Part shown: positions 52,369-61,489 of the stretch, piece after piece | Layout: each line of letters begins with the position of its first letter | Position numbering within the stretch: the stretch's first letter is position 1 | Notes under the pieces: generated by a model | The model's database searches: none | What the model saw: the letters and a program-made list of their open reading frames with translations, nothing else | Told to the model about the DNA's origin: nothing | Position numbers and translations under genes: made by a program | Source of the DNA: Candidatus Bathyarchaeota archaeon | GTDB lineage: Archaea; Thermoproteota; Bathyarchaeia; Bathyarchaeales; Bathycorpusculaceae | DNA: 64,000 nucleotides | Direction of reading: 5' to 3' | NCBI GenBank assembly: GCA_963767735.1 | Contig: CAVYES010000006.1 | Span: forward strand, 384,001 to 448,000

Positions 52369-52707
52369 TTAGTTTTCGCTTATTATCTTTTCAAACCATG
52401 GCTTGAGTTTAGGTATATCCGTGTTTACTGTGCTCCATACTCTTTTCAGATCTACTCCAAAGTACTCATGAATTACTTTATCTCGCATTCCAGCCATATC
52501 TTTCCGTGGTATTTGAGGGTAATTATTCTTGATTTCAAGCGGTATATTTTTTGTAGCTTCTCCGATGATTTCCAGTGCTCTAATAACTGCGTAAACTGTT
52601 TTCTTATCCTTTGAAAAGCTATCATAATCCATGTCTTTAACAAAACCGATGGCATCATTCATTGCATTTATTATGTCCTCAATGTAATCCAAGAACTCTT
52701 TTTTCAT
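52369..52707 (-). CDS. HEPN (DUF86/HepT) toxin
   Basis: LEIIGEATKNIP...GMRDKVIHEYFGVD (R-x4-H). Confidence 0.92.
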   Translation of the reverse strand: MKKEFLDYIEDIINAMNDAIGFVKDMDYDSFSKDKKTVYAVIRALEIIGEATKNIPLEIKNNYPQIPRKDMAGMRDKVIHEYFGVDLKRVWSTVNTDIPKLKPWFEKIISEN

Positions 52708-53012
52708 ATGGGTACAACTTCTTCCAAGACATGCTTTCCTATTCTTGGCTTAAGAGTATGTTTTTCTACCAAATCGACCTTAATTCCCAAAATATCACCC
52801 AGGTAATTTTCTATTCCAATGAAATCTAAAAGGCTTAAATCGGCTGTTTCTTCAAACTCCACTAAAATATCGAGGTCGCTTTGTTTTTTCTGTTCGCCTC
52901 TAACGTAGGAACCGAAAATGCCTATTTCTTTAATTTTATATTTTTGCCTCAATTCTTCTTTATGTTCAGCTAAAGTGCTTTTTATCTGCTCGAACGTTTT
53001 CATTCTGCTCAT
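52704..53012 (-). CDS. MNT antitoxin
   Basis: FGSYVRGEQKKQSDLDILV. Confidence 0.92.
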   Translation of the reverse strand: MSRMKTFEQIKSTLAEHKEELRQKYKIKEIGIFGSYVRGEQKKQSDLDILVEFEETADLSLLDFIGIENYLGDILGIKVDLVEKHTLKPRIGKHVLEEVVPI

Positions 53013-53444
53013 TTCTTATTCTACGGTTGATAAGTTAAGTCTTGCCGTTTATACGGCTTAAAATTGAGTTTGGCTTGGTGTGTACCAAGTTGATTTTTTG
53101 GCTTTTGTCTTAGACGTCTGTGTGTGATCAAGCTACCCTCCCGGTCTGCTAGATGCTTCTATTAGGCTTCAAATATGATTCAACATAGTTCAACATAGAC
53201 GCAACGTCGCGCACTTTCAACATGAATTGATGCTTTTTTAACATACGAGAACTGTAGAATGCGCTGTTTACCCTTTGTTAACCGTGGTAAGAAAAGTCGG
53301 TTCCAATCAGTTCACGATGATGTTGTGGGTGAGCACCTAAATTTGATGATTTCGCGTTGGAGTTGTGTTTTGGGGAAGTTTTATATTTGTCGAGTGCAGA
53401 CCTTACTTTGTAAGGTATTTAAGTCTTACTTGATGGGGAAAAAC

Positions 53445-53906
53445 ATGACCTTGAGCTTTGGATACTTGACCGCTAAACAAAAAATGATCTGGGACCTAAA
53501 AAGCAGAGGACAACAAGAAGCCAGCATCGCAAGAAAACTCAACGTCACCCGCCAAACAATTCACAGCGTTCTAGACACAGCGAACCTCAAGATCGGCGAA
53601 GCCCTACAAGAGGTAGCAACAATCAACAAAATCGAAGTCGAAACCCTCGACCCAAACAGAGGATTCCTCAAAGGATACAGCAACCACTTCAAAACCCAAG
53701 CCTTCGTCACCTTCTCAGCCAAAAACGGTATCCAACTCTGGTACAAACACGAAGGCGACTGCGAAAAATGCAATAAACTCCAAACCTGCAGAGACACGTT
53801 GCTTGTGGAGGCAAAAGACCGCAACTTCCTACTGCTGGATGATACGAGCAAGATTTTGCCCTCCAAACTTGCAGAAGCCCTATTCGCAAAAATAACAGGT
53901 GAATAG
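53445..53906 (+). CDS. Sigma70-region-4/LuxR-like HTH regulator with C-terminal H-x3-C-x2-C-x5-C metal site
   Basis: LTAKQKMIW...EASIARKLNVTRQTIH HTH; WYKHEGDCEKCNKLQTC. Confidence 0.75.
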   Translation: MTLSFGYLTAKQKMIWDLKSRGQQEASIARKLNVTRQTIHSVLDTANLKIGEALQEVATINKIEVETLDPNRGFLKGYSNHFKTQAFVTFSAKNGIQLWYKHEGDCEKCNKLQTCRDTLLVEAKDRNFLLLDDTSKILPSKLAEALFAKITGE

Positions 53907-53908
53907 AC

Positions 53909-55441
53909 ATGGGTATTCGTAAAAGACTTAAAGATTTTAGAAATTGGTGCCCTCAACCGCCAGACCGCTTGCCCACCCAACTGAGAAGGTATTATGTGCC
54001 CATTGCCGCCATAGTTACAGCAAGCATTATTCTGTCCGTTTCATTCTTCGCTTTTTCAGGCTTAATGTCTAACATGTCGGTTCCCGTGATTCCCTTAGTT
54101 AACGTTGGCTCATCGACTAACCCTACTCTACTCTGGAACTATACCACTGGCAACTTAGTTTATTCGCCTCCCACCATCAACAACGGAGTACTCTACGTAA
54201 GCTCCTTAGACGGAAACATTTATGCCTTAAACGCTACCAACGGGGCGAAAATTTGGAATTTCACAACTAGCGGTCAGGTTTTTGCGAGTCCTGATGTTGT
54301 CGATGGTGTCGTTTACGTAGGCTGCGCTGTGCTCCCACCGCCTAGTGAGTTAGGCACTTTAACAACGGGGGGCGCCGTATATGCTTTGAACGCTACTAAC
54401 GGTGTCCAACTCTGGAAATATGTCACCAGTGGCTATGGTGTTTCTTCATGTCCAGTTGCTATCGGTGGTGTTGTCTATGTTGGCTCATGGGACGGTAACA
54501 TCTATGCTTTGAACGCTACAAGCGGCGCCAAGCTTTGGAATTATAATACAGGTGGAGCTGTTTATTCTTCTGCTGTCGCTGGCGGCATAATCTACGTTGA
54601 CTCTTCTGACGACAATGTATACGCTCTTAACGCTACCAACGGTGATAGACTCTGGAACTGCCTCACAAGCAGCGCATTACTGATCAGTTGGGGGGGCGTG
54701 CTATATCCGATTTGGTCATCTCCTGTCGTTGTCGGCGCAGCGGTCTACGTATGCAGCGACAATGGTACCGTCTACGCCTTGAATGCTGAAAGTGGCACGC
54801 TTCTTTGGAATTACAACACCACCCGCATTGAGCCATACTATCAAGTTACGATTTTGTCATCTCCTAGCGACGTCAGCGGAGTACTCTACCTAAGCTCCCA
54901 AGACGGAAACATTTATGCTTTGAACGCCACCAACGGCGTAAAAATCTGGAACACCACCAGCGGTGAATTCGATACCTTGTTCAGCACATCTCCTGCCGTT
55001 GTTGGTGGCGTGATTTACGCAAGTTCCTATGATACCTTAGGAAATGGCACTTTGTGTGCTTTGAACGCTATCGACGGTGACCAACTCTGGAACTTCACTA
55101 TTCCAAACAGTTACTACCTGACTACATCTCCTACCTTCTTTAACGGAGTAGTTTATGCAGGCTGCGCCAACAGCGTTTATGCATTAAGAGTTGCGTCTCC
55201 GACGCCTTCACCAACGCCGCCACCTTCAACCGCTATTTCGAACACCCAACTCATAATCATCGGAGGGTTAGTTGCAGTGATAATTGCTGCTACAATGGTT
55301 CTTTTAATGTTTAAAAGGAGACTTAAAATCAAAAGCGCAAGCCCACCGTCTACAACACATAACTCCATCAATTTCATCTGTTCAAATTCACAGAGCTACT
55401 ATGTTTGGAAACCTTCTTCACAAAAATACACGGGCGAATAG
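53909..55441 (+). CDS. PQQ-like beta-propeller surface protein with WCP leader
   Basis: Leader + TM, repeated YALNATNG..LW blades, P/T linker, C-terminal TM. Confidence 0.9.
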   Translation: MGIRKRLKDFRNWCPQPPDRLPTQLRRYYVPIAAIVTASIILSVSFFAFSGLMSNMSVPVIPLVNVGSSTNPTLLWNYTTGNLVYSPPTINNGVLYVSSLDGNIYALNATNGAKIWNFTTSGQVFASPDVVDGVVYVGCAVLPPPSELGTLTTGGAVYALNATNGVQLWKYVTSGYGVSSCPVAIGGVVYVGSWDGNIYALNATSGAKLWNYNTGGAVYSSAVAGGIIYVDSSDDNVYALNATNGDRLWNCLTSSALLISWGGVLYPIWSSPVVVGAAVYVCSDNGTVYALNAESGTLLWNYNTTRIEPYYQVTILSSPSDVSGVLYLSSQDGNIYALNATNGVKIWNTTSGEFDTLFSTSPAVVGGVIYASSYDTLGNGTLCALNAIDGDQLWNFTIPNSYYLTTSPTFFNGVVYAGCANSVYALRVASPTPSPTPPPSTAISNTQLIIIGGLVAVIIAATMVLLMFKRRLKIKSASPPSTTHNSINFICSNSQSYYVWKPSSQKYTGE

Positions 55442-55443
55442 GA

Positions 55444-56788
55444 ATGGGTTTGCATAAGAGATTTAGGGATTTTAGGGATTGGTGTCCTCAGCCACCAGAT
55501 CGTTTGCCTAGAAGACTGAAACAGTATTCTGTTCCAATCACTATCCTGCTCACGGTAACCCTTTTCGCTGCTTCATTTTCAATTTTCTACTCAGGCAGCA
55601 TGTTCCACCCTTCCATACCACTGGCGCCCGCAATACCTATGAGCGCTATCGCTCAATCTTCGAGCACCTTTTACATTGGGCCTTCAAATACCATTTACAT
55701 TAGACCAGATGGAAGCATAGATCCTTCAACAGCGCCTATAAAACGAGTAGGAAACGTCTACACACTTACAGACAACATAGCTAACAACAATGGGACCGCA
55801 ATCGAGGTTCAGAAGGATAACATCGTTATTGACGGAGCGGGCTTTACGCTTCAAGGTCCAGGAACTCCACTTCCCCTGACTGATGAACTTACCGGTGGTA
55901 TTGGCATCGATATTTCAAATGGAAACAACGTTACAGTAGAAAATTTTCTGATTACCAACGCTTTGGTTGGTATCGAACTTGAAAACAGTGCCAACTCACA
56001 ACTAATCCAAAACAACATAACAACCTACTCGTATGAAAATGGCATCGATGTTTTTAACTCCTCAAACAACGCGATATCCAACAATAACATCGTCTCGTAT
56101 GCTAACCTTGATGGTTGCCAAAACAACGGCATTAGACCTGAGCAATTCTTTTAACAACACAGTTTCCAAAAACAACGTGGTAGGAAGCTGGATAGGTATC
56201 TACTTGGGGATACAAATAGCAGTGTTGTTTCTGGGAACAGCGTTACCCAAAGTTGCACGGGAATAGGTCTCTTTGCTTCTGATGCTAACCAAGTGTTTGG
56301 AAACAACGTGTTTGGAACAGTCGAAGCTATCTCTCACTGGAGATTATCCTGATTCTGGAACAGGCATAACACTCTACGATAAAGCAGACTATAACCAAGT
56401 TTACGGAAACAACCTCATCAACAACGGTAATGGCATGAATGTGTGGTTTGGTTCTTCAAACAATACAATATACGATAACAATTTTGAAAAAAACCAGTTC
56501 GGTCAAGTAAACCTCTCACAGGAATCTGGAGTAAGCAACTTTTGGGACAACGGTACAATAGGTAATTACTGGAGCGATTATCATGGGCAGGGAACATACG
56601 TCATTGATAACAATAACGTTGACTACCATCCGCTTACGCATTCGACGCTGCTTTCTGCTATACTGCCGATTGCCACTATTGCCACCGTTGCATCCGTGGT
56701 GGCTCTTGTTTCCTCACTGTTGCTTTATAGAAGGTATCGAAAGAGGCAAGTAAACGAGCAAAAACAAATTGAAACTCGGGTGAGTTGA
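55444..56788 (+). pseudogene. NosD/CASH beta-helix surface protein with WCP leader, three frameshifts
   Basis: TIYIRPDGSIDP, NIVIDGAG, WDNGTIGNYWSDY; frame changes near 56135, 56208 and 56330. Confidence 0.75.
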
Positions 56789-56789
56789 A

Positions 56790-59591
56790 ATGGGTCTGCG
56801 TAAAAGGTTTAGGGATTTTAGGGATTGGTGTCCTGAGCCACCAGACCGATTTCCTGCAAAATTGAAACGATATTCCATGCCCATCGTTGCGGTGGTAACG
56901 GTAACCCTTATTTTGTCCATGTCATTTTTCGTGTTTTCATCAAGCTTAATATCTAATCCGACCGTTCCAATCGTGCCCTTAGCCAATGGACAAAGCACTT
57001 GGAGTAGGCAGACTGTATCGACCGATGATACCTTCGGAGCAATCTACATGGCTTTGGACTCAAACAACAATCCGCACGAAGTCTATACTGGAGCAAATGG
57101 CTTAATGTATTATGCGAGTTGGGACGGTTCAAGCTGGGAAATTCAAAGTGTCATCCAAGGAGGCACCCCAGACAGTCTCGTATTGGACTTAAACAATAAC
57201 CCACATATACTCTACAAAGGGGCTAACGGGGTAACATATTATGCAAGCTGGGACGGGTCGAACTGGAACTTTCTAACTGTACCAACAGGCTACGGATACT
57301 CTCTTGCTTTGGATTCAGAGGGCAACCCACATTTAGCTTATGAAAACGTTTTGCCAGTTTCAGAGTATCCTTCGGGAATTACCAATGATATTTCTATGTT
57401 GAATTATGCAAGTTGGAATGGCTCAGGCTGGAGCGTTCAAACGGTTGACGAACCGATAAGCTATACTGACAGTATTTATTTGGCTTTAGATCAAAGCAAT
57501 AACCCGCACATAATGTACGGCTACGATACTTATTATCCGCCGAATGGTGGTGAGCTATTTGCAGTGAAGTTCGCTGTCTGGAATGGCTCAGGTTGGAACA
57601 TTCAAACAGTCTTCTCCAATTTGGGTTATTTCGGAGACCTGGTTTTAGATTCGAGTGGTTATTCCCACTTTATTTACTCGAAAGATTCTTCATTGATGTA
57701 TGCAAGCTGGAACGGGTCAGTTTGGAATACACAAACTGTTATTTCGAATAATAGCTACGGCAACCCCAGCCTCGCGTTAGACTCGCACAATGACCCAAGT
57801 ATCGAGTTCTTCAACGGCTCTTTAATGTATACTAGCTGGACAGGTGCAGGCTGGAATATTCAAACTGTCGCCCCAAGCAACTTCGCTTACGCAGCGGGTC
57901 CTTTAGCGTTAGACTCTAACGGTAACCCGATTATCTGCTACTGGGTGGATGACATACGCAACACCACAGCTTTTGTCAGCCAATTAATTATTACCTCACC
58001 CACGCCTTTGCATGCTACACAGGCCCCTAAGCCTTCGCCCACTACACTTAAAACGTTGCCACCCACTTCAGTCTCAGTTACCAAACTCTGGGACTTTACA
58101 CCTGCCCAAAGTGAAATCATTTCTTCAGTTACGGCAAATGGCAATATTTACTTTACATCTGGGAACAGCGGCGCGCCTCCTGCGACCTTGTATTGCCTTG
58201 ACGCTTCCACTGGCGCCCAAATCTGGAACCAAACGGGCATCTTGAACGGATTTACGGTTGCAAACAGGTATGTCTACGTTGACGAGGGTTTGCCAGGTGC
58301 AGTTGCGTGCTTGAACGCTTACACGGGTGTCCAACTCTGGAATTATTCTTTCGGAACAGATTTTGGCACTCCTACGGTAGATGGAGGCATAGTCTATGTT
58401 GGAGGACAAAGCTACACATTGTCAACGGATGCAGATGTTGGCTGCGTTTATGCTTTCAATGCTTTAACTGGAGCAGTAGTTTGGAACTTCACAGGTTCAG
58501 CGCAGACTCGCTTTGACTTAAGTCCCTTAGTTGTTGCAGGTGAAAGCGTTTATGCCGTTAGCGCGTTCCTGTCAGATTACGACAGCTCTTGGCATGGTGC
58601 TGTTTACGCGTTAGATGCTTCCACAGGAAAAGAACTATGGAATTACACAGCCCTTAGTGATTTTAGTTCAGTTGTTGCTAGTGGCCAAGAAGTCTACATT
58701 AGTTCTAGCTTTGTTGACACTACCAACTACGTAAATACTGAGAACGTCAACGGAAAAATCTATGAAGGCGGCATTCTTTCCCTCAACGCATTTAATGGGG
58801 CAAAAGTTTGGAACTATCCAACCGACAGTTCTGTTGAGTCTCTTATTGTCGCCAATGACACGGTTTATGCAGACTCCGGTGACGGTATCGTATATTCTTT
58901 TGATGCTTCAAACGGTATGGCGAACTGGAATTATGCTGCCGGGACAGGTATAGGCTCTCTCATCTTAGTTAATGGCTACCTTTATGCAGGCTCCTCCTCG
59001 GGCGTCTACTGCTTCGATTCAACCAATGGCAAAATTATTTGGAACTTCGCAACCAGCGACTTTACTGATTCGTCCACCACTTATCCGACGTATGCTGATG
59101 GTTTAATTTATTTGGGGTGGAATGGTCCCATGTTTTTCTCGCCTGCAACTCAGCATGACTTCTACGCTCTTGATGCATGGACTGGTCAAAAACTTTGGAA
59201 CTATACACTGGACTATACAGTTTCATCTTCTCCTGTAGTTGCAGGTGGCACCGTTTACATAGGCGGCAATTTCGTGAGCACTAAAAGCCCAGATTATGAA
59301 GGACCAGGCGCTGTTTTAGCTCTAAAAACAAATGCTGCATCTTTGCCGTTTACACAGCCGCCATCATCTTCAACTTCAACATCATCAACGCCCCAAACTC
59401 AAGATTTGTTAAATCCTGTTCTACTTGCTTCTCTGACTGTAATTGTGGTTGTCATTGCTGTTATGGCTGTTCTACTTTTAAGACACAGGAAAATGACTAA
59501 CAAGACTTCTCCAAGTCCTGATCTATCATCCAAATTTTTTCAGAAAACATGGTTCTCAAAAATCAGGGGAGTTAAAAATGGGTTTGCGTAG
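56790..59591 (+). CDS. Two-propeller surface protein (ALDS.G.PH repeats + PQQ-like repeats) with WCP leader
   Basis: Repeated LALDSxxNPHI...YASWxGSxW then LDAxTG..LW blades; C-terminal TM. Confidence 0.9.
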   Translation: MGLRKRFRDFRDWCPEPPDRFPAKLKRYSMPIVAVVTVTLILSMSFFVFSSSLISNPTVPIVPLANGQSTWSRQTVSTDDTFGAIYMALDSNNNPHEVYTGANGLMYYASWDGSSWEIQSVIQGGTPDSLVLDLNNNPHILYKGANGVTYYASWDGSNWNFLTVPTGYGYSLALDSEGNPHLAYENVLPVSEYPSGITNDISMLNYASWNGSGWSVQTVDEPISYTDSIYLALDQSNNPHIMYGYDTYYPPNGGELFAVKFAVWNGSGWNIQTVFSNLGYFGDLVLDSSGYSHFIYSKDSSLMYASWNGSVWNTQTVISNNSYGNPSLALDSHNDPSIEFFNGSLMYTSWTGAGWNIQTVAPSNFAYAAGPLALDSNGNPIICYWVDDIRNTTAFVSQLIITSPTPLHATQAPKPSPTTLKTLPPTSVSVTKLWDFTPAQSEIISSVTANGNIYFTSGNSGAPPATLYCLDASTGAQIWNQTGILNGFTVANRYVYVDEGLPGAVACLNAYTGVQLWNYSFGTDFGTPTVDGGIVYVGGQSYTLSTDADVGCVYAFNALTGAVVWNFTGSAQTRFDLSPLVVAGESVYAVSAFLSDYDSSWHGAVYALDASTGKELWNYTALSDFSSVVASGQEVYISSSFVDTTNYVNTENVNGKIYEGGILSLNAFNGAKVWNYPTDSSVESLIVANDTVYADSGDGIVYSFDASNGMANWNYAAGTGIGSLILVNGYLYAGSSSGVYCFDSTNGKIIWNFATSDFTDSSTTYPTYADGLIYLGWNGPMFFSPATQHDFYALDAWTGQKLWNYTLDYTVSSSPVVAGGTVYIGGNFVSTKSPDYEGPGAVLALKTNAASLPFTQPPSSSTSTSSTPQTQDLLNPVLLASLTVIVVVIAVMAVLLLRHRKMTNKTSPSPDLSSKFFQKTWFSKIRGVKNGFA

Positions 59592-61092
59592 GAGATTTAG
59601 GGATTTTAGGGATTGGTGTCCACAACCGCCCAATCCTCTACCCACTAATCTTAAGCGGTATTCTGCTACAATCGCAGTTGTGCTGGCGGTTACTGTTCTT
59701 TCAGCAGCACTGTTTACGGTTTCGTCAAGTTACCTTTTAGGCTCTTCGGTGAAAACGCTACCAATTTTACCGCTGTCTGCGCAGAAGACGTCTGCCTCAC
59801 CTAATATAGCGCAACTCTGGAACTTATCAATAGGTTTGCAGAGTGGTTCGCCTACCTTTTCCAACGGCTACCTCTACGCAGAATCCGCTGTGTTAAACGG
59901 CAATGCTTATTGCCTTAACGCTTCAACAGGCACCCAAATATGGAGTTTCCCGCTAGGGGACACAGACCTTAGCAGCTTTTTTCCTTATGGTTTTATCTTT
60001 TCGCCAGTTGTTTCAGGAGCATACGTTTACGCGGGCGCTTCAATTGCCATTAACATTGGGTATTACGACGTCATCTATTGCCTAAACGCATTAACAGGAG
60101 CTGAATTGTGGAACTTCACTTATGGGCCATCCACAGCTAACTATGCTCCTGCAGTGGCTAATGGGTACGTTTACGCTGTTTCGGGTTTTCCAAGTAAAGT
60201 TGACGTTTACGCGCTCAATGCTGCAACAGGAGCCTCAGTATGGAACTTCACTACGGGCGCCACTATTGAATCGTCGCCAACTGTAGCAAATAACGTGCTG
60301 TACGTTTCATCAGGCAGCACAGTTTTTGCTCTAAATGGCGTAACTGGAACGGAGATATGGAATTACCCCACGGGCAATACTGCTGCATCTGCCACTATCA
60401 GCAACGGCGTAGTTTACTTTGCGTCTGGAAACCTTCTCTATGCCCTTGACGCTGAAAGCGGAACGCAAATCTGGAATGCATCAACGCCTCAAACAATCGC
60501 AACGGATTCTCCCCCTGCAGTAGCCAACAACTTGGTCTATGTAAGCTCCAATGACACAGTCTATTGCTTTTACACTTTGTCAGGTGCCCAAGCATGGAAC
60601 CAAGCAACCGCTGGGACAGCAACCTCTCCCGTAATCTCAAGCGGTAACGTTTACCTCGGTTCCAATGGCGTCAGCGTTTACTGTCTGAACGCCTCAACGG
60701 GAGACAAAGCATGGAACGTCACAGCTTTACCACATCTAACTGCAATGTACATGGATTTCACAGAGAACCAGATATTTCCAGGCATGGGGCCAATTCAAGG
60801 CGGTCCAATCCTGTACTCTCCCACTGTCGTCAACGACACCGTGTACATAAGCCTAAGTGCCTCAGCTTTTACTAGTCCAAATGGAGGAGACGTTACTAAC
60901 GTGGGTATCATTTTTGCGTTAGGACCTGCAACAACTCTTACCCCTTCACCTACGCCATCTCCCTCACCTACGTCATCTAACAATCTAACCATTATAATCG
61001 GAGTGGTAGTTGCAGTCGTTATTGTTGCCGCATTGGTATTCTTAATGTTCCTGCGTAAGAAAGGATTTACGTCAAAAATTAGGAGTGAATAA
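59578..61092 (+). CDS. PQQ-like beta-propeller surface protein with WCP leader
   Basis: Leader + TM, YCLNASTG..W blades, PSPTPSPSP linker, C-terminal TM. Confidence 0.9.
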   Translation: MGLRRRFRDFRDWCPQPPNPLPTNLKRYSATIAVVLAVTVLSAALFTVSSSYLLGSSVKTLPILPLSAQKTSASPNIAQLWNLSIGLQSGSPTFSNGYLYAESAVLNGNAYCLNASTGTQIWSFPLGDTDLSSFFPYGFIFSPVVSGAYVYAGASIAINIGYYDVIYCLNALTGAELWNFTYGPSTANYAPAVANGYVYAVSGFPSKVDVYALNAATGASVWNFTTGATIESSPTVANNVLYVSSGSTVFALNGVTGTEIWNYPTGNTAASATISNGVVYFASGNLLYALDAESGTQIWNASTPQTIATDSPPAVANNLVYVSSNDTVYCFYTLSGAQAWNQATAGTATSPVISSGNVYLGSNGVSVYCLNASTGDKAWNVTALPHLTAMYMDFTENQIFPGMGPIQGGPILYSPTVVNDTVYISLSASAFTSPNGGDVTNVGIIFALGPATTLTPSPTPSPSPTSSNNLTIIIGVVVAVVIVAALVFLMFLRKKGFTSKIRSE

Positions 61093-61094
61093 AG

Positions 61095-61163
61095 ACGGAC
61101 ATGCATAAAAGATTTAGAGATTTTAGAGATTGATGTCCTCAACCAACTGCTAAGCTGTCTTAC
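61095..61163 (+). repeat. Fifth, degenerate copy of the WCP leader (no cargo gene)
   Basis: ACG GAC ATG CAT AAA AGA TTT AGA GAT TTT AGA GAT TGA TGT CCT CAA CCA = (T)DMHKRFRDFRD*CPQP. Confidence 0.85.
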
Positions 61164-61489
61164 GTTTTGCAGGTGACCAAAACTGGAATGACCGTTTTTA
61201 ACTCCACAAAATATTCTTTCAATAGACCTTGCCCTTTTCTTGTAATTCGGTATTGTTTGCGGGCTTTTCCACGGGTGATCTCCCAGTTTGAAGATATTAG
61301 CTGCTGTTTCTCTAAATGTTTGAGTTCAGTATATAGGGTTGATGGGCCTAGGCGTATGCCGAATTTCTTGTATACCACCTTGAAGATGGCGTATCCATGT
61401 AGTCCGCGGTCGGATGTATCGTTTATGATGTTGAGCAAGACGCTTTCGAGGATTGCGCCGCGGAAAATTTTTTTGTTTAAAACTATCAA
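61160..61489 (-). CDS. PadR family transcriptional regulator
   Basis: HGYAI...GPSTLY..L..LE....I.S.W.....RKQYRITRKG. Confidence 0.9.
   Translation of the reverse strand: MIVLNKKIFRGAILESVLLNIINDTSDRGLHGYAIFKVVYKKFGIRLGPSTLYTELKHLEKQQLISSNWEITRGKARKQYRITRKGQGLLKEYFVELKTVIPVLVTCKT

Follow-up and report, generated by a model that had tools for sequence, protein, structure and literature searches.

Little is understood of how archaea pass signals across their membranes, and less still for the Bathyarchaeia, which are abundant in peat, soil and sediment but uncultured. To our knowledge archaea have no sigma factors, and of the Tfx family of DNA-binding proteins we know of two studied members and of no known input. 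Several described systems offer points of comparison for a membrane-linked gene switch. SigI/RsgI systems occur as multiple pairs in cellulolytic clostridia, and the repressor Mlc is sequestered by the membrane protein PtsG. The motif H-x3-C-x2-C defines the ZAS anti-sigma factors, which include RsrA and RsiW, and in the eukaryotic CD4/CD8-Lck 'zinc clasp' a membrane protein supplies part of a metal site from its short cytoplasmic tail and a soluble partner supplies the rest, with the Cys residues split 2+2. Among the systems closest to the locus considered here is the Tfx/EnfR family (TIGR00721, NF053597; PDB 8hno, 1nr3). As the accessible part of the EnfR paper has it, EnfR is a repressor binding a pseudo-palindrome in the promoter, the Tfx family is without an effector-binding domain, and the authors, who could only guess at a protein partner, suggest a protein anti-repressor; that part mentions no obligatory downstream membrane partner for Tfx/EnfR (PMC10570040). 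DUF1673/arCOG06827 of Methanosarcina is reported to be an expanded membrane-protein family with an N-terminal 'MGWCP motif' (PMC4158269), so that the GWCP start mentioned in an earlier note on this DNA does appear in print.

The locus described below couples a Tfx-like regulator gene to genes for membrane proteins with a conserved N-terminal tail. The pairing hints at a gene switch tethered to the membrane, a kind undescribed in archaea, but is no proof of one, and the open-access text of the literature yielded no description of a regulator/tailed-membrane-protein module.

The regulator gene and its product

The window, a 64,000-nucleotide stretch of a Candidatus Bathyarchaeota contig, contains the regulator gene and, beginning 2 bases after it, an array of four tightly packed leader genes, one of them disrupted (Table 1). 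The regulator start at 53445 is favoured over a longer ORF from 53259 by the alignment of 29 orthologous upstream regions (consensus AAnATGAC). The stop codon TAG occupies 53904-53906 and the following gene opens with an ATG at 53909, and the 2-bp gap reported in the earlier note is thus correct. The translated product contains HEGDCEKCNKLQTC, with residues H102, C106, C109 and C115.

The HTH is of the LuxR/sigma-70 region 4/Tfx type, in agreement with its first description as sigma-region-4/LuxR-like. NCBIfam Tfx (TIGR00721) matches residues 7-64 only (E 9.4e-5), and the whole-protein score of 22.3 bits is below the curated cut-off of 60.25; in a PDB profile search EnfR (8hno) is the best match (E 3e-6). 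Superposition by VIA-align gives Z 7.2 and an rmsd of 1.5 A over 52 residues (31% identity) for the HTH against 8hno, and Z 6-7.5 against LuxR/GerE and ECF sigma region 4. Within the regulator family, 59 of 80 members match Tfx at E <= 0.01 and seven match EnfR. Sigma70_r2 was unmatched in the window regulator in both Pfam and NCBIfam.

The AF2 model of the regulator (pLDDT 84.4) comprises the HTH, a long helix (36-60), four strands (63-100), and then a Cys knuckle followed by helices 112-125 and 139-151; the Cys motif is placed in a loop and turn between strand 95-100 and helix 112-125. The whole model superposes on 8hno with a TM score of 0.36-0.40 and an rmsd of about 11 A. For the C-terminal domain, with its four-strand sheet, Cys knuckle and two helices, no PDB counterpart was found (Foldseek E at least 0.086, VIA Z at most 3.7), an absence that is not proof of a different fold, and a Protein Atlas search with this domain gave nothing usable.

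Table 1. Features of the locus, in positions of the window.
Feature	Position	Strand	Remarks
BRE/TATA-like promoter element (GGGGAAG TTTTATAT)	53372..53386	+	block AA...TTAnAT, conserved upstream of type-I regulators (alignment of 29 regions)
Candidate operator, inverted repeat CTTAC-N3-GTAAG	53402..53414	.	extended ACCTTAC TTT GTAAGGT, 53400-53416
Third half-site CTTAC	53425..53429	+	16 nt before start codon; in 28/29 aligned loci
Regulator gene	53445..53906	+	Tfx-like HTH, 153 aa; C-x2-C-x5-C (C106, C109, C115) plus H102
Leader gene 1	53909..55441	+	510 aa: tail, TM1, PQQ beta-propeller, Pro/Ser/Thr linker, C-terminal TM
Leader gene 2	55444..56788	+	beta-helix/NosD-like, disrupted
Leader gene 3	56790..59591	+	933 aa: tail, TM1, unassigned region and PQQ propeller, C-terminal TM
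Leader gene 4	59578..61092	+	504 aa: tail, TM1, PQQ propeller, C-terminal TM
Leader remnant MHKRFRDFRD*CPQP	61101..61160	+	TGA at Trp-codon position of intact leaders
PadR gene	61160-61489	-	Pfam E 1.8e-14

The leader genes

The leader products open with M-G-x-R-K-R-F-R-D-F-R-D-W-C-P-Q-P-P, continue into a TM helix and then into an ectodomain that is a PQQ propeller or a beta-helix. The tail of gene 1 is MGIRKRLKDFRNWCPQPPDRLPTQLRRYY (53909-53995), and its ectodomain matches Pfam PQQ_2 at E 1.7e-48. The frame of gene 2 stops at 56154 and resumes in another frame, which has an in-frame TAG at 56264-56266 before the last part (56273-56788); the two pieces match Beta_helix (E 6e-9) and NosD (E 4e-11). 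Genes 3 and 4 overlap by 14 nt, and the remnant was found by tblastn at C6:445101-445145. All four tails are basic (7-9 K+R, 2-4 D+E) and 28-30 residues long, with W-C-P at residues 13-15. Behind each comes a hydrophobic 19-mer with a Kyte-Doolittle mean of 2.1-2.4, and the segment after that holds only 0-2 K+R, from which, by the positive-inside rule alone, a cytoplasmic N-terminus is predicted. The ectodomains of genes 1, 3 and 4 carry 10-13 N-x-S/T sequons.

Promoter and candidate operator

The AA...TTAnAT block upstream of the regulator may be read as an archaeal TATA box. Downstream of it the inverted repeat is exact in 27 of 29 aligned loci, the other two having CTGAC, and in all five groups examined the stretch from the TATA-like box to the start codon holds an inverted repeat specific to the subfamily. 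Because these repeats differ from one subfamily to the next, the regulator is likely to autoregulate its operon. A candidate operator in this position, beyond the TATA-like box, points to repression more than to activation of the sigma kind. Exact CTTAC-N3-GTAAG sites number three in the 3.04-Mb genome; two precede the two copies of the type-I regulator, and the third (C4:179558), after a KatG-like ORF, looks like chance. A wider regulon was considered and rejected, three exact sites standing against about 3.5 expected and two of them belonging to type-I regulators. Variants with one mismatch occur at 62 genomic sites.

Linkage across genomes and subfamilies

Linkage of regulator homologues to leader genes, the lack of which had been named beforehand as grounds for abandoning the idea of a joint module, is found in Bathyarchaeia and sister classes alike: 71 of 74 regulator/partner pairs overlap or are at most 6 nt apart, and 29 share a 4-nt overlap. 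The pairing is seen in 103 of the 301 genomes of the class and in further genomes of other classes, and it persists across subfamilies down to about 25-35% regulator identity. Two regulators (L081, L082) have no partner; at L054 a signal-peptide protein without the tail comes next, and at L035, L037 and L044 there is no ORF downstream. The organism's own genome has only five Cys-leader genes; all of them, and one remnant, follow one or other copy of the type-I regulator, which goes beyond chance. The single clear gene with a W-L-P tail follows the type-II paralogue, and one looser match (K-W-V-P, on C2) stands alone.

The tails match the regulator subfamilies. Among 85 regulators, 53 combine the Cys triad with a downstream tail that holds an invariant Cys (C-x-x-P); 12 lack the triad, and the tail behind them reads G-W-[LVIF]-P and contains no Cys; and 13, which make up subfamily III, have the triad and a bPH_2 membrane protein as partner, its tail likewise Cys-less. 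The regulators without the triad form a single clade (SH-aLRT 99), with triad and tail Cys lost on one branch; the sister group keeps the triad (L094, whose partner is unreadable at the contig end), as does, outside the tree, the genome-mate L111, which has a near-identical motif region and the Cys tail AWCPK. Since the joint variation of triad and tail Cys represents one evolutionary event, it may be coincidence. Two longer proteins were present among 453 candidates. One, P0210 (one cluster, two contigs), fuses regulator and leader protein in frame, which is weak evidence for docking and may reflect a frameshift artefact in the overlap region; the other, P0211, joins a TM segment and a PAS-like part to the regulator C-terminal domain on a 1237-nt contig and may be a chimera.

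Conservation of the tail

The placement of W-C-P ahead of the first TM helix with an ectodomain after it, as first claimed, holds for the four window genes, but the W and first P are invariant in the window only; family-wide just the Cys is invariant, with Pro at +3 in at least 90%. The Cys is present in 48 of 48 aligned leaders. Library matches of the leader profile, 89 representatives in all, have C-x-x-P within the first 30 residues in 80 cases; the Cys is kept in two more and replaced by Tyr in two, which counts against the docking reading set out below. Some partners read LGWCP (L076, L110). At the codon level Cys14 is TGC in 14 sequences and TGT in 14, and Pro15 is written with all four codons. 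Selection thus acts on the peptide and not on the DNA, because synonymous codons vary at both positions. The tail is the only part common to partners whose ectodomains differ: of 73 partners, nine are PQQ, three beta-helix and 13 bPH_2 proteins, and 48 have no family over the cut-off.

Docking site or extended targeting signal

The reading of these sequences that we favour, though tentatively, is that the locus is a surface-protein operon under a tail-sequestered, Tfx-like autorepressor. The product of the first gene would bind CTTAC-N3-GTAAG over the expected transcription start and most likely repress its own operon, and the later genes would supply surface proteins with variable ectodomains, their only common element being the basic, presumably cytoplasmic, N-terminal tail of about 29 residues. 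This tail would serve as a docking site, tail-bearing proteins would keep the regulator at the membrane and off its operator, and the state or abundance of the surface proteins would feed back on transcription, in a switch resembling the anti-sigma or anti-repressor type, its outer domains being exchangeable. Where the subfamily is of the Cys type, the invariant tail Cys may combine with the C-x2-C-x5-C knuckle, either through a metal site common to both or through a thiol link. Linkage, exclusivity within the own genome, the tail as sole shared part of differing partners, peptide-level selection, constancy of the tail Cys, matched types and subfamily-specific repeats all count for docking, as do the reported lack of an effector-binding domain in the Tfx family and the anti-repressor suggestion of the EnfR authors. 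Against it count the Cys-less partners of subfamily III, the potentially complete four-ligand site of the window protein, the regulators without a tailed partner, and the possibility that tandem duplication alone holds leader genes beside the regulator; one regulator here also faces four tails, unlike the 1:1 pairs of anti-sigma systems.

The main alternative, a real possibility if one that we doubt, is an ordinary operon in which a Tfx-like autoregulator controls a surface-protein array and the tail, never touching the regulator, is the extended n-region of a signal anchor or signal peptide and serves to target, insert, process or retain the protein. Extended signal peptides of the YSIRK or ESPR type are a comparison in spirit. 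Tight gene packing and the palindromes would account for the co-occurrence without docking, and leader arrays can expand by tandem duplication, as the arrays of the window and of L025 indicate; yet a general targeting signal would be expected on scattered genes, and in this genome those with the Cys leader are without exception behind regulators. The partner of subfamily III is a quite different membrane protein, as this alternative would allow, but tail type follows regulator subfamily and not ectodomain type, and the leader profile finds its few representatives among 1.84 billion. The basic tail does run straight into a hydrophobic segment, and the genome encodes TatC, so that the Tat pathway itself may still be used. 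The Tat consensus, however, has its twin arginine directly before the hydrophobic region, whereas here R-K-R-F lies about 17 residues upstream of that segment and the twin Arg is not conserved. A Tat signal at R-K-R-F, where RR occurs in one of the four window leaders, was rejected.

The Cys triad and the question of a metal site

The string H-x3-C-x2-C singled out in the earlier note is present in the window protein, but its His is not conserved, being Gly in 15 of 15 subfamily-Ib sequences and Y, Q or N in others, and only C-x2-C-x5-C is kept across the regulator family. Likeness to the ZAS motif is accordingly superficial, the more so as the motif follows a beta-sheet in a DNA-binding protein and does not belong to a helical anti-sigma domain. 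The triad is retained in 70 of 85 regulators, and in subfamily III it is accompanied by an invariant His in 13 of 13. With His replaced by Gly, three ligands remain in subfamily Ib, where the partner Cys is always present wherever a tailed partner exists.

A more specific version of the docking reading, which we consider unlikely, takes the regulator C-x2-C-x5-C and the tail Cys to form, in Bathyarchaeia and related Thermoproteota, an intermolecular metal or thiol clasp on interchangeable surface proteins, the regulator being released or captured according to ectodomain state or redox; it would be an archaeal functional counterpart of sigma/anti-sigma switches, and the MGWCP (DUF1673) proteins of Methanosarcina might take part in a similar one. 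The suggestion that the tail donates a Cys fits the 53 pairs of triad and Cys tail but not the triad regulators with Cys-less tails, and obligate donation is disfavoured because 13 triad regulators pair with a Cys-less bPH membrane protein. Complex prediction with the regulator alignment, Zn and tail residues 1-34 gave scores of 0.03 and 0.01 against a mark of 0.32 and, run without controls, weighs neither for nor against binding.

Rather improbable, in our judgement, is a stand-alone redox or metal sensor, in which the H/Cys3 knuckle by itself would bind Zn or Fe-S and sense oxidants or metal, the membrane proteins would be its regulon and the tail Cys would have an unrelated role such as disulphide formation or modification. 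In the window protein H-x3-C-x2-C-x5-C sets four potential ligands within 14 residues, and H102, C106, C109 and C115 could already make a complete site without the tail; in subfamily Ib, against this, the fourth ligand is missing from the regulator and the Cys is there in tailed partners. Triad regulators with Cys-less partners speak for such a sensor, but the clade without the triad kept its gene pairing while losing the tail Cys on the same branch. The source organisms come from peat and soil metagenomes, habitats that would be redox-variable, yet a stand-alone sensor leaves unexplained why the tail is the sole conserved part of the partners. That there is no functional unit at all, the leaders resembling one another (46-64% identity across 50 residues in the window, with ectodomains unlike each other) through recent gene conversion among paralogues and adjacency being accidental, is scarcely credible and already contradicted by the pairing at 25-35% regulator identity and in other classes and by the free synonymous variation at conserved residues.

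Neighbouring gene, transcripts and significance

A PadR gene does close the locus, as the earlier note said, but it is not a conserved member of the module: a survey of all collected loci, about 29 of them type I, with flanks up to 4 kb, gave a single clear orthologue, located downstream in L009 (78% identity), besides a weak match in L032. In peat metatranscriptomes, contigs over parts of the regulator and leader genes occur in three of four runs, with none in the fourth; most are 90-95% identical and so derive from close relatives rather than from this strain. They provide no start site, strand or level, and a contig end at 53423 carries adapter sequence and is not interpretable.

The module offers a candidate input for a Tfx-type regulator in the form of one defined peptide, together with one defined candidate operator per subfamily, and its natural matched variants (Cys-type, non-Cys-type and bPH-type) lend themselves to in vitro tests that need no culture of the organism. 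Should docking of the regulator by the tail hold, these archaea would have their first candidate environmental sensors in the variable PQQ-propeller and beta-helix ectodomains; should it fail, what stands is a new subfamily of Tfx-like proteins, together with its sites for autoregulation and a conserved leader of an unusual kind.

Comparison with known systems

The arrangement recalls ECF sigma/anti-sigma pairs, with a region-4-like DNA-binding protein presumably co-transcribed with a single-pass membrane protein that has a predicted cytoplasmic N-terminus and a variable outer domain. The regulator, however, is without region 2 and resembles a sigma factor in its HTH only; the cytoplasmic part of the partner is about 29 residues long, in contrast to the roughly 80 of the anti-sigma helical domain, and there are up to four partners per regulator. 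The H-x3-C-x2-C string is shared with the ZAS anti-sigmas RsrA and RsiW, although there the Cys motif is on the inhibitor and here on the DNA-binding protein. A site analogous to the zinc clasp would here be split into three regulator Cys and one tail Cys, and subfamily III speaks against a general need for the latter. G-W-C-P may link some partners (LGWCP) to DUF1673, but in the window leaders W-C-P stands at residues 13-15 and not 3-5, the MGWCP motif being taken from one table line (PMC4158269). Membership of DUF1673 was rejected: PF07895 was unmatched in the window proteins (E <= 0.01), in 73 partners (E <= 0.001) and in the own genome.

By analogy, a set of paralogous regulator/membrane-sensor pairs whose ectodomains, carbohydrate-binding or other, can be exchanged would resemble SigI/RsgI, and a repressor titrated to the membrane would resemble Mlc-PtsG, in neither case with any relation of sequence or fold. 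The window protein differs from Tfx/EnfR in matching the family over its N-terminal part only, below the cut-off, and in a C-terminal domain for which no PDB counterpart was found. Where the family binds a (pseudo)palindrome as a dimer, a conserved palindrome lies at the promoter here as a candidate site, and both have an N-terminal sigma-70-region-4-like HTH with a long helix behind it.

The regulator operon and its tailed proteins

The window lies on contig G000:C6 of its own genome (Bathyarchaeia, 3.04 Mb, 10 contigs), and related records are MAGs from peat, fen and soil labelled Bathyarchaeota or 'Bathy-6'. The earlier note had described a regulator motif, a 2-base gap, W-C-P leaders and a PadR gene, and all of these can be read in the sequence. 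Two bases separate the TAG stop of the Tfx-like regulator gene from the ATG of leader gene 1 at 53909, and the four leader genes, which encode membrane proteins with a short basic tail before the first TM helix, stand behind the regulator with nearly no spacing between them. The break in leader gene 2 marks a pseudogene or reflects a fault in the assembly, and the remnant behind gene 4 indicates that the array has evidently lost one member. A longer regulator ORF from 53259 (53259-53444) is unsupported: promoter elements and the candidate operator fall inside it, and orthologue starts match 53445. The upstream side of the promoter region adjoins a typical MNT/HEPN toxin-antitoxin pair.

Features of the regulator locus in window coordinates
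Feature	Position	Strand	Description
MNT/HEPN pair	52369-53012	-	nucleotidyltransferase gene (NTP_transf_2, E 8.5e-20) overlapping HepT-like RNase gene (E 1.6e-27)
A-rich/TTAnAT block	53372-53386	+	conserved in alignment of 29 type-I upstream regions
Inverted repeat CTTAC-N3-GTAAG	53402-53414		~16 nt past A-rich/TTAnAT block; exact in 27/29; flanks often extend symmetry
Third CTTAC	53425-53429	+	present in 28/29 aligned type-I loci
Regulator ORF	53445-53906	+	153 aa, contains HEGDCEKCNKLQTC; H102, C106, C109, C115 form H-x3-C-x2-C-x5-C
Leader gene 1	53909-55441	+	tail and ectodomain
Leader gene 2	55444-56788	+	beta-helix/NosD-like; broken: frame ends 56154, homology resumes in another frame, in-frame TAG 56264-56266
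Leader gene 3	56790-59591	+	tail and ectodomain
Leader gene 4	59578-61092	+	tail and ectodomain
Fifth-leader remnant	61101-61160	+	MHKRFRDFRD*CPQP; TGA at Trp codon of intact leaders; between gene 4 and PadR stop
PadR gene	61160-61489	-	convergent to leader array

The window leaders begin M-G-[IL]-[RH]-[KR]-R-[LF]-[KR]-D-F-R-[ND]-W-C-P-[QE]-P-P, and their tails of 28-30 residues (7-9 K+R) run into a hydrophobic 19-mer and then a segment nearly without charge. The ectodomains are PQQ-propellers or beta-helix/NosD folds with abundant N-x-S/T sequons, and a Pro/Ser/Thr linker leads from there to a second TM helix at the end of each protein. Among aligned leaders of Cys-type pairs the tail Cys is invariant (48/48) and is followed at +3 by Pro in at least 90%, with variable adjoining residues. 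A leader profile retrieved 89 representatives among 1.84 billion proteins, the match nearly always starting at residue 1; C-x-x-P lies within the first 30 residues in 80, Cys is retained in 2 more, Tyr occurs in 2, and the remainder are spurious or truncated. Since synonymous codons vary at the tail Cys (TGC and TGT in 14 sequences each) and at the next position (all four Pro codons), selection acts on the peptide.

Linkage and matched subfamilies

A second regulator copy on contig C3 of the same genome (91% identity) again has a W-C-P leader gene 2 nt downstream, and the Cys-leader genes of this genome (5/5) lie behind these two type-I regulators. A paralogue on contig C4, 34% identical to the regulator, has none of the three Cys, and the gene overlapping its stop begins MNVINYLRDRIRGWLPQEP; the single clear W-L-P-tailed gene of the genome lies behind the type-II (no-triad) paralogue. 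One looser K-W-V-P match stands alone on contig C2, where G000:C2:272753 (+) encodes a 406-aa membrane protein with N-terminal F-K-W-V-P-E-N; no regulator homologue was detected near it, and the gene may be a tail-like orphan.

Across 29 archaeal loci from genome contigs, a leader gene with a W-C-P, Y-C-P, F-C-P or R-C-P tail stands behind every regulator with readable downstream sequence. Among sampled genomes of the class, 103/301 carry the regulator family, a single genome yielding as many as 7 matches; a phylum-wide sample matched 33/401, 17 of them outside the class, including 7 with full-length matches from five families. Regulator and partner overlap or are separated by at most 6 nt in 71/74 pairs over all loci, 29 of them sharing a 4-nt overlap. 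Type-II regulators also head arrays (L025:416-2057, L024:7312-7770), and locus L025 has three tandem genes with R-G-W-[VI]-P-K tails. Two database proteins, P0210 (649 aa, 2 contigs; an in-frame fusion of regulator, leader and PQQ protein) and P0211 (287 aa, 1237-nt contig; a TM and PAS-like N-terminus joined to the regulator C-terminal domain), could each be a natural fusion or an artefact.

Regulator subfamilies and downstream partners among 85 regulator genes (excluding the window copy, L027 and L028; labels for L015, L047 and L093-L098 assigned by hand)
Regulator	Downstream	Genes
Cys triad	Cys-containing tail	53
Cys triad	bPH_2 membrane protein, tail K-x-I-K-P-P...S-G-K-I-F-K-P-S, no Cys	13
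No triad	G-W-[LVIF]-P tail without Cys	12
No triad	no downstream ORF	3
Cys triad	no partner (L081, L082)	2
Cys triad	tail-less signal-peptide protein (L054)	1
Cys triad	unreadable at contig end (L094)	1

A quick maximum-likelihood tree unites the no-triad regulators in a single clade (SH-aLRT 99), whose sister, L094, retains the triad. The triad is also present in L111, from the same genome as L094, and its partner has the N-terminus MSRRLRRISLAWCPK, so that triad and tail Cys were lost on one and the same branch; this joint loss is suggestive support that counts as one single event. Subfamily III (L063-L075) is a distinct, well-conserved pair of a ~167-aa regulator with H...C-x2-C-x5-C and a P-R-Y-K-R end, and a ~240-aa membrane protein with a bacterial PH domain (bPH_2, 13/13).

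Candidate operator

The exact CTTAC-N3-GTAAG repeat occurs three times in the genome, about the expectation from base composition, and two of these take this same position in front of the two type-I regulators. The third, G000:C4:179558, is in the gap behind a KatG-like ORF and is probably due to chance. At the corresponding site the other groups carry distinct repeats (GTAAAyA-N6-TrTTTAC; GTAAA-TC-TTTAC, the operator candidate of subfamily III; GTAAGC...GCTTAC; GTCAAC-N8/9-GTTGAC), and such related half-sites, subfamily-specific in detail, would be expected of homologous dimeric HTH proteins acting on their own promoters. Since transcription in archaea begins ~25 nt past the TATA box, the repeat would span the start site, the usual operator position for archaeal repressors. 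This position argues against a sigma-like activating role of the regulator.

Family and fold of the regulator

The regulator has no Pfam match above threshold, and its NCBIfam match to Tfx (TIGR00721; E 9.4e-5, residues 7-64 only) reaches 22.3 bits where 60.25 are required, which by that criterion places it outside Tfx membership. Among 80 family members, Tfx was matched at E <= 0.01 in 59, EnfR in 7 and ECF sigma models in 15. The AlphaFold2 model (pLDDT 84.4, pTM 0.77) consists of two short helices, a long helix (36-60), a four-stranded sheet (63-100), the Cys knuckle and two more helices. The closest solved structures are two EnfR entries; 8hno gave a profile E of 3e-6 across the HTH and a Foldseek probability of 0.98, yet TM 0.36-0.40, and superposed with Z 7.2 (52 residues, 1.5 A), followed by LuxR/GerE and ECF sigma region 4 (Z 6-7.5). 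Modelled separately (pLDDT 80.8), the C-terminal domain found no PDB counterpart (best Foldseek E 0.086, VIA Z at most 3.7). The regulator thus represents a new and distant offshoot of the Tfx-like regulators, with a C-terminal domain that is probably its own. PMC10570040 describes Tfx proteins as having a sigma-70-region-4-like HTH, and EnfR as a dimeric repressor that acts on a 36-bp pseudo-palindrome and is without an effector-binding domain; an anti-repressor protein is its authors' speculation.

Discussion

The operon, the matched tails, their conservation at the peptide level and the palindromes are established. We tentatively favor a reading, slightly less likely than not to be correct, in which the regulator would repress its own operon and the surface proteins under its control would set its availability, their cytoplasmic tails serving as putative docking sites. 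The main rival, possible if somewhat doubtful, takes the tail as a mere extended signal-anchor and the leaders as a gene family that duplicates locally and is controlled by an ordinary operon regulator. A further rival, improbable, makes the regulator a redox or metal sensor that works by itself. Within the docking model, a Cys4 site shared between three regulator Cys and one tail Cys is unlikely: it fits the invariant tail Cys, the His-less Cys-type subfamily Ib and the loss of triad and tail Cys together on one branch. Subfamily III speaks against such a site as a general rule, and the window protein, with His102, does not need it.

The earlier note named a GWCP start in Methanosarcina DUF1673 membrane proteins, and a table line in PMC4158269 does give an 'MGWCP' motif for DUF1673 proteins; the DUF1673 Pfam model does not match the proteins studied here. 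Full-text searches of the open-access literature found no description of this regulator/tailed-protein pairing. Of the proposed analogy to a sigma/anti-sigma switch, what stands is the likeness to a sigma/anti-sigma or repressor/anti-repressor pair in the putative way of working; the module is a member of neither. Unlike ECF sigma/anti-sigma pairs it has neither sigma region 2 nor an anti-sigma domain, and unlike in zinc-binding anti-sigma factors, H-x3-C-x2-C is not conserved and is placed on the DNA-binding protein. We regard the pairing, whose central interaction we infer, as a putative switch of a known kind in a new form, carried by a new Tfx-like subfamily.
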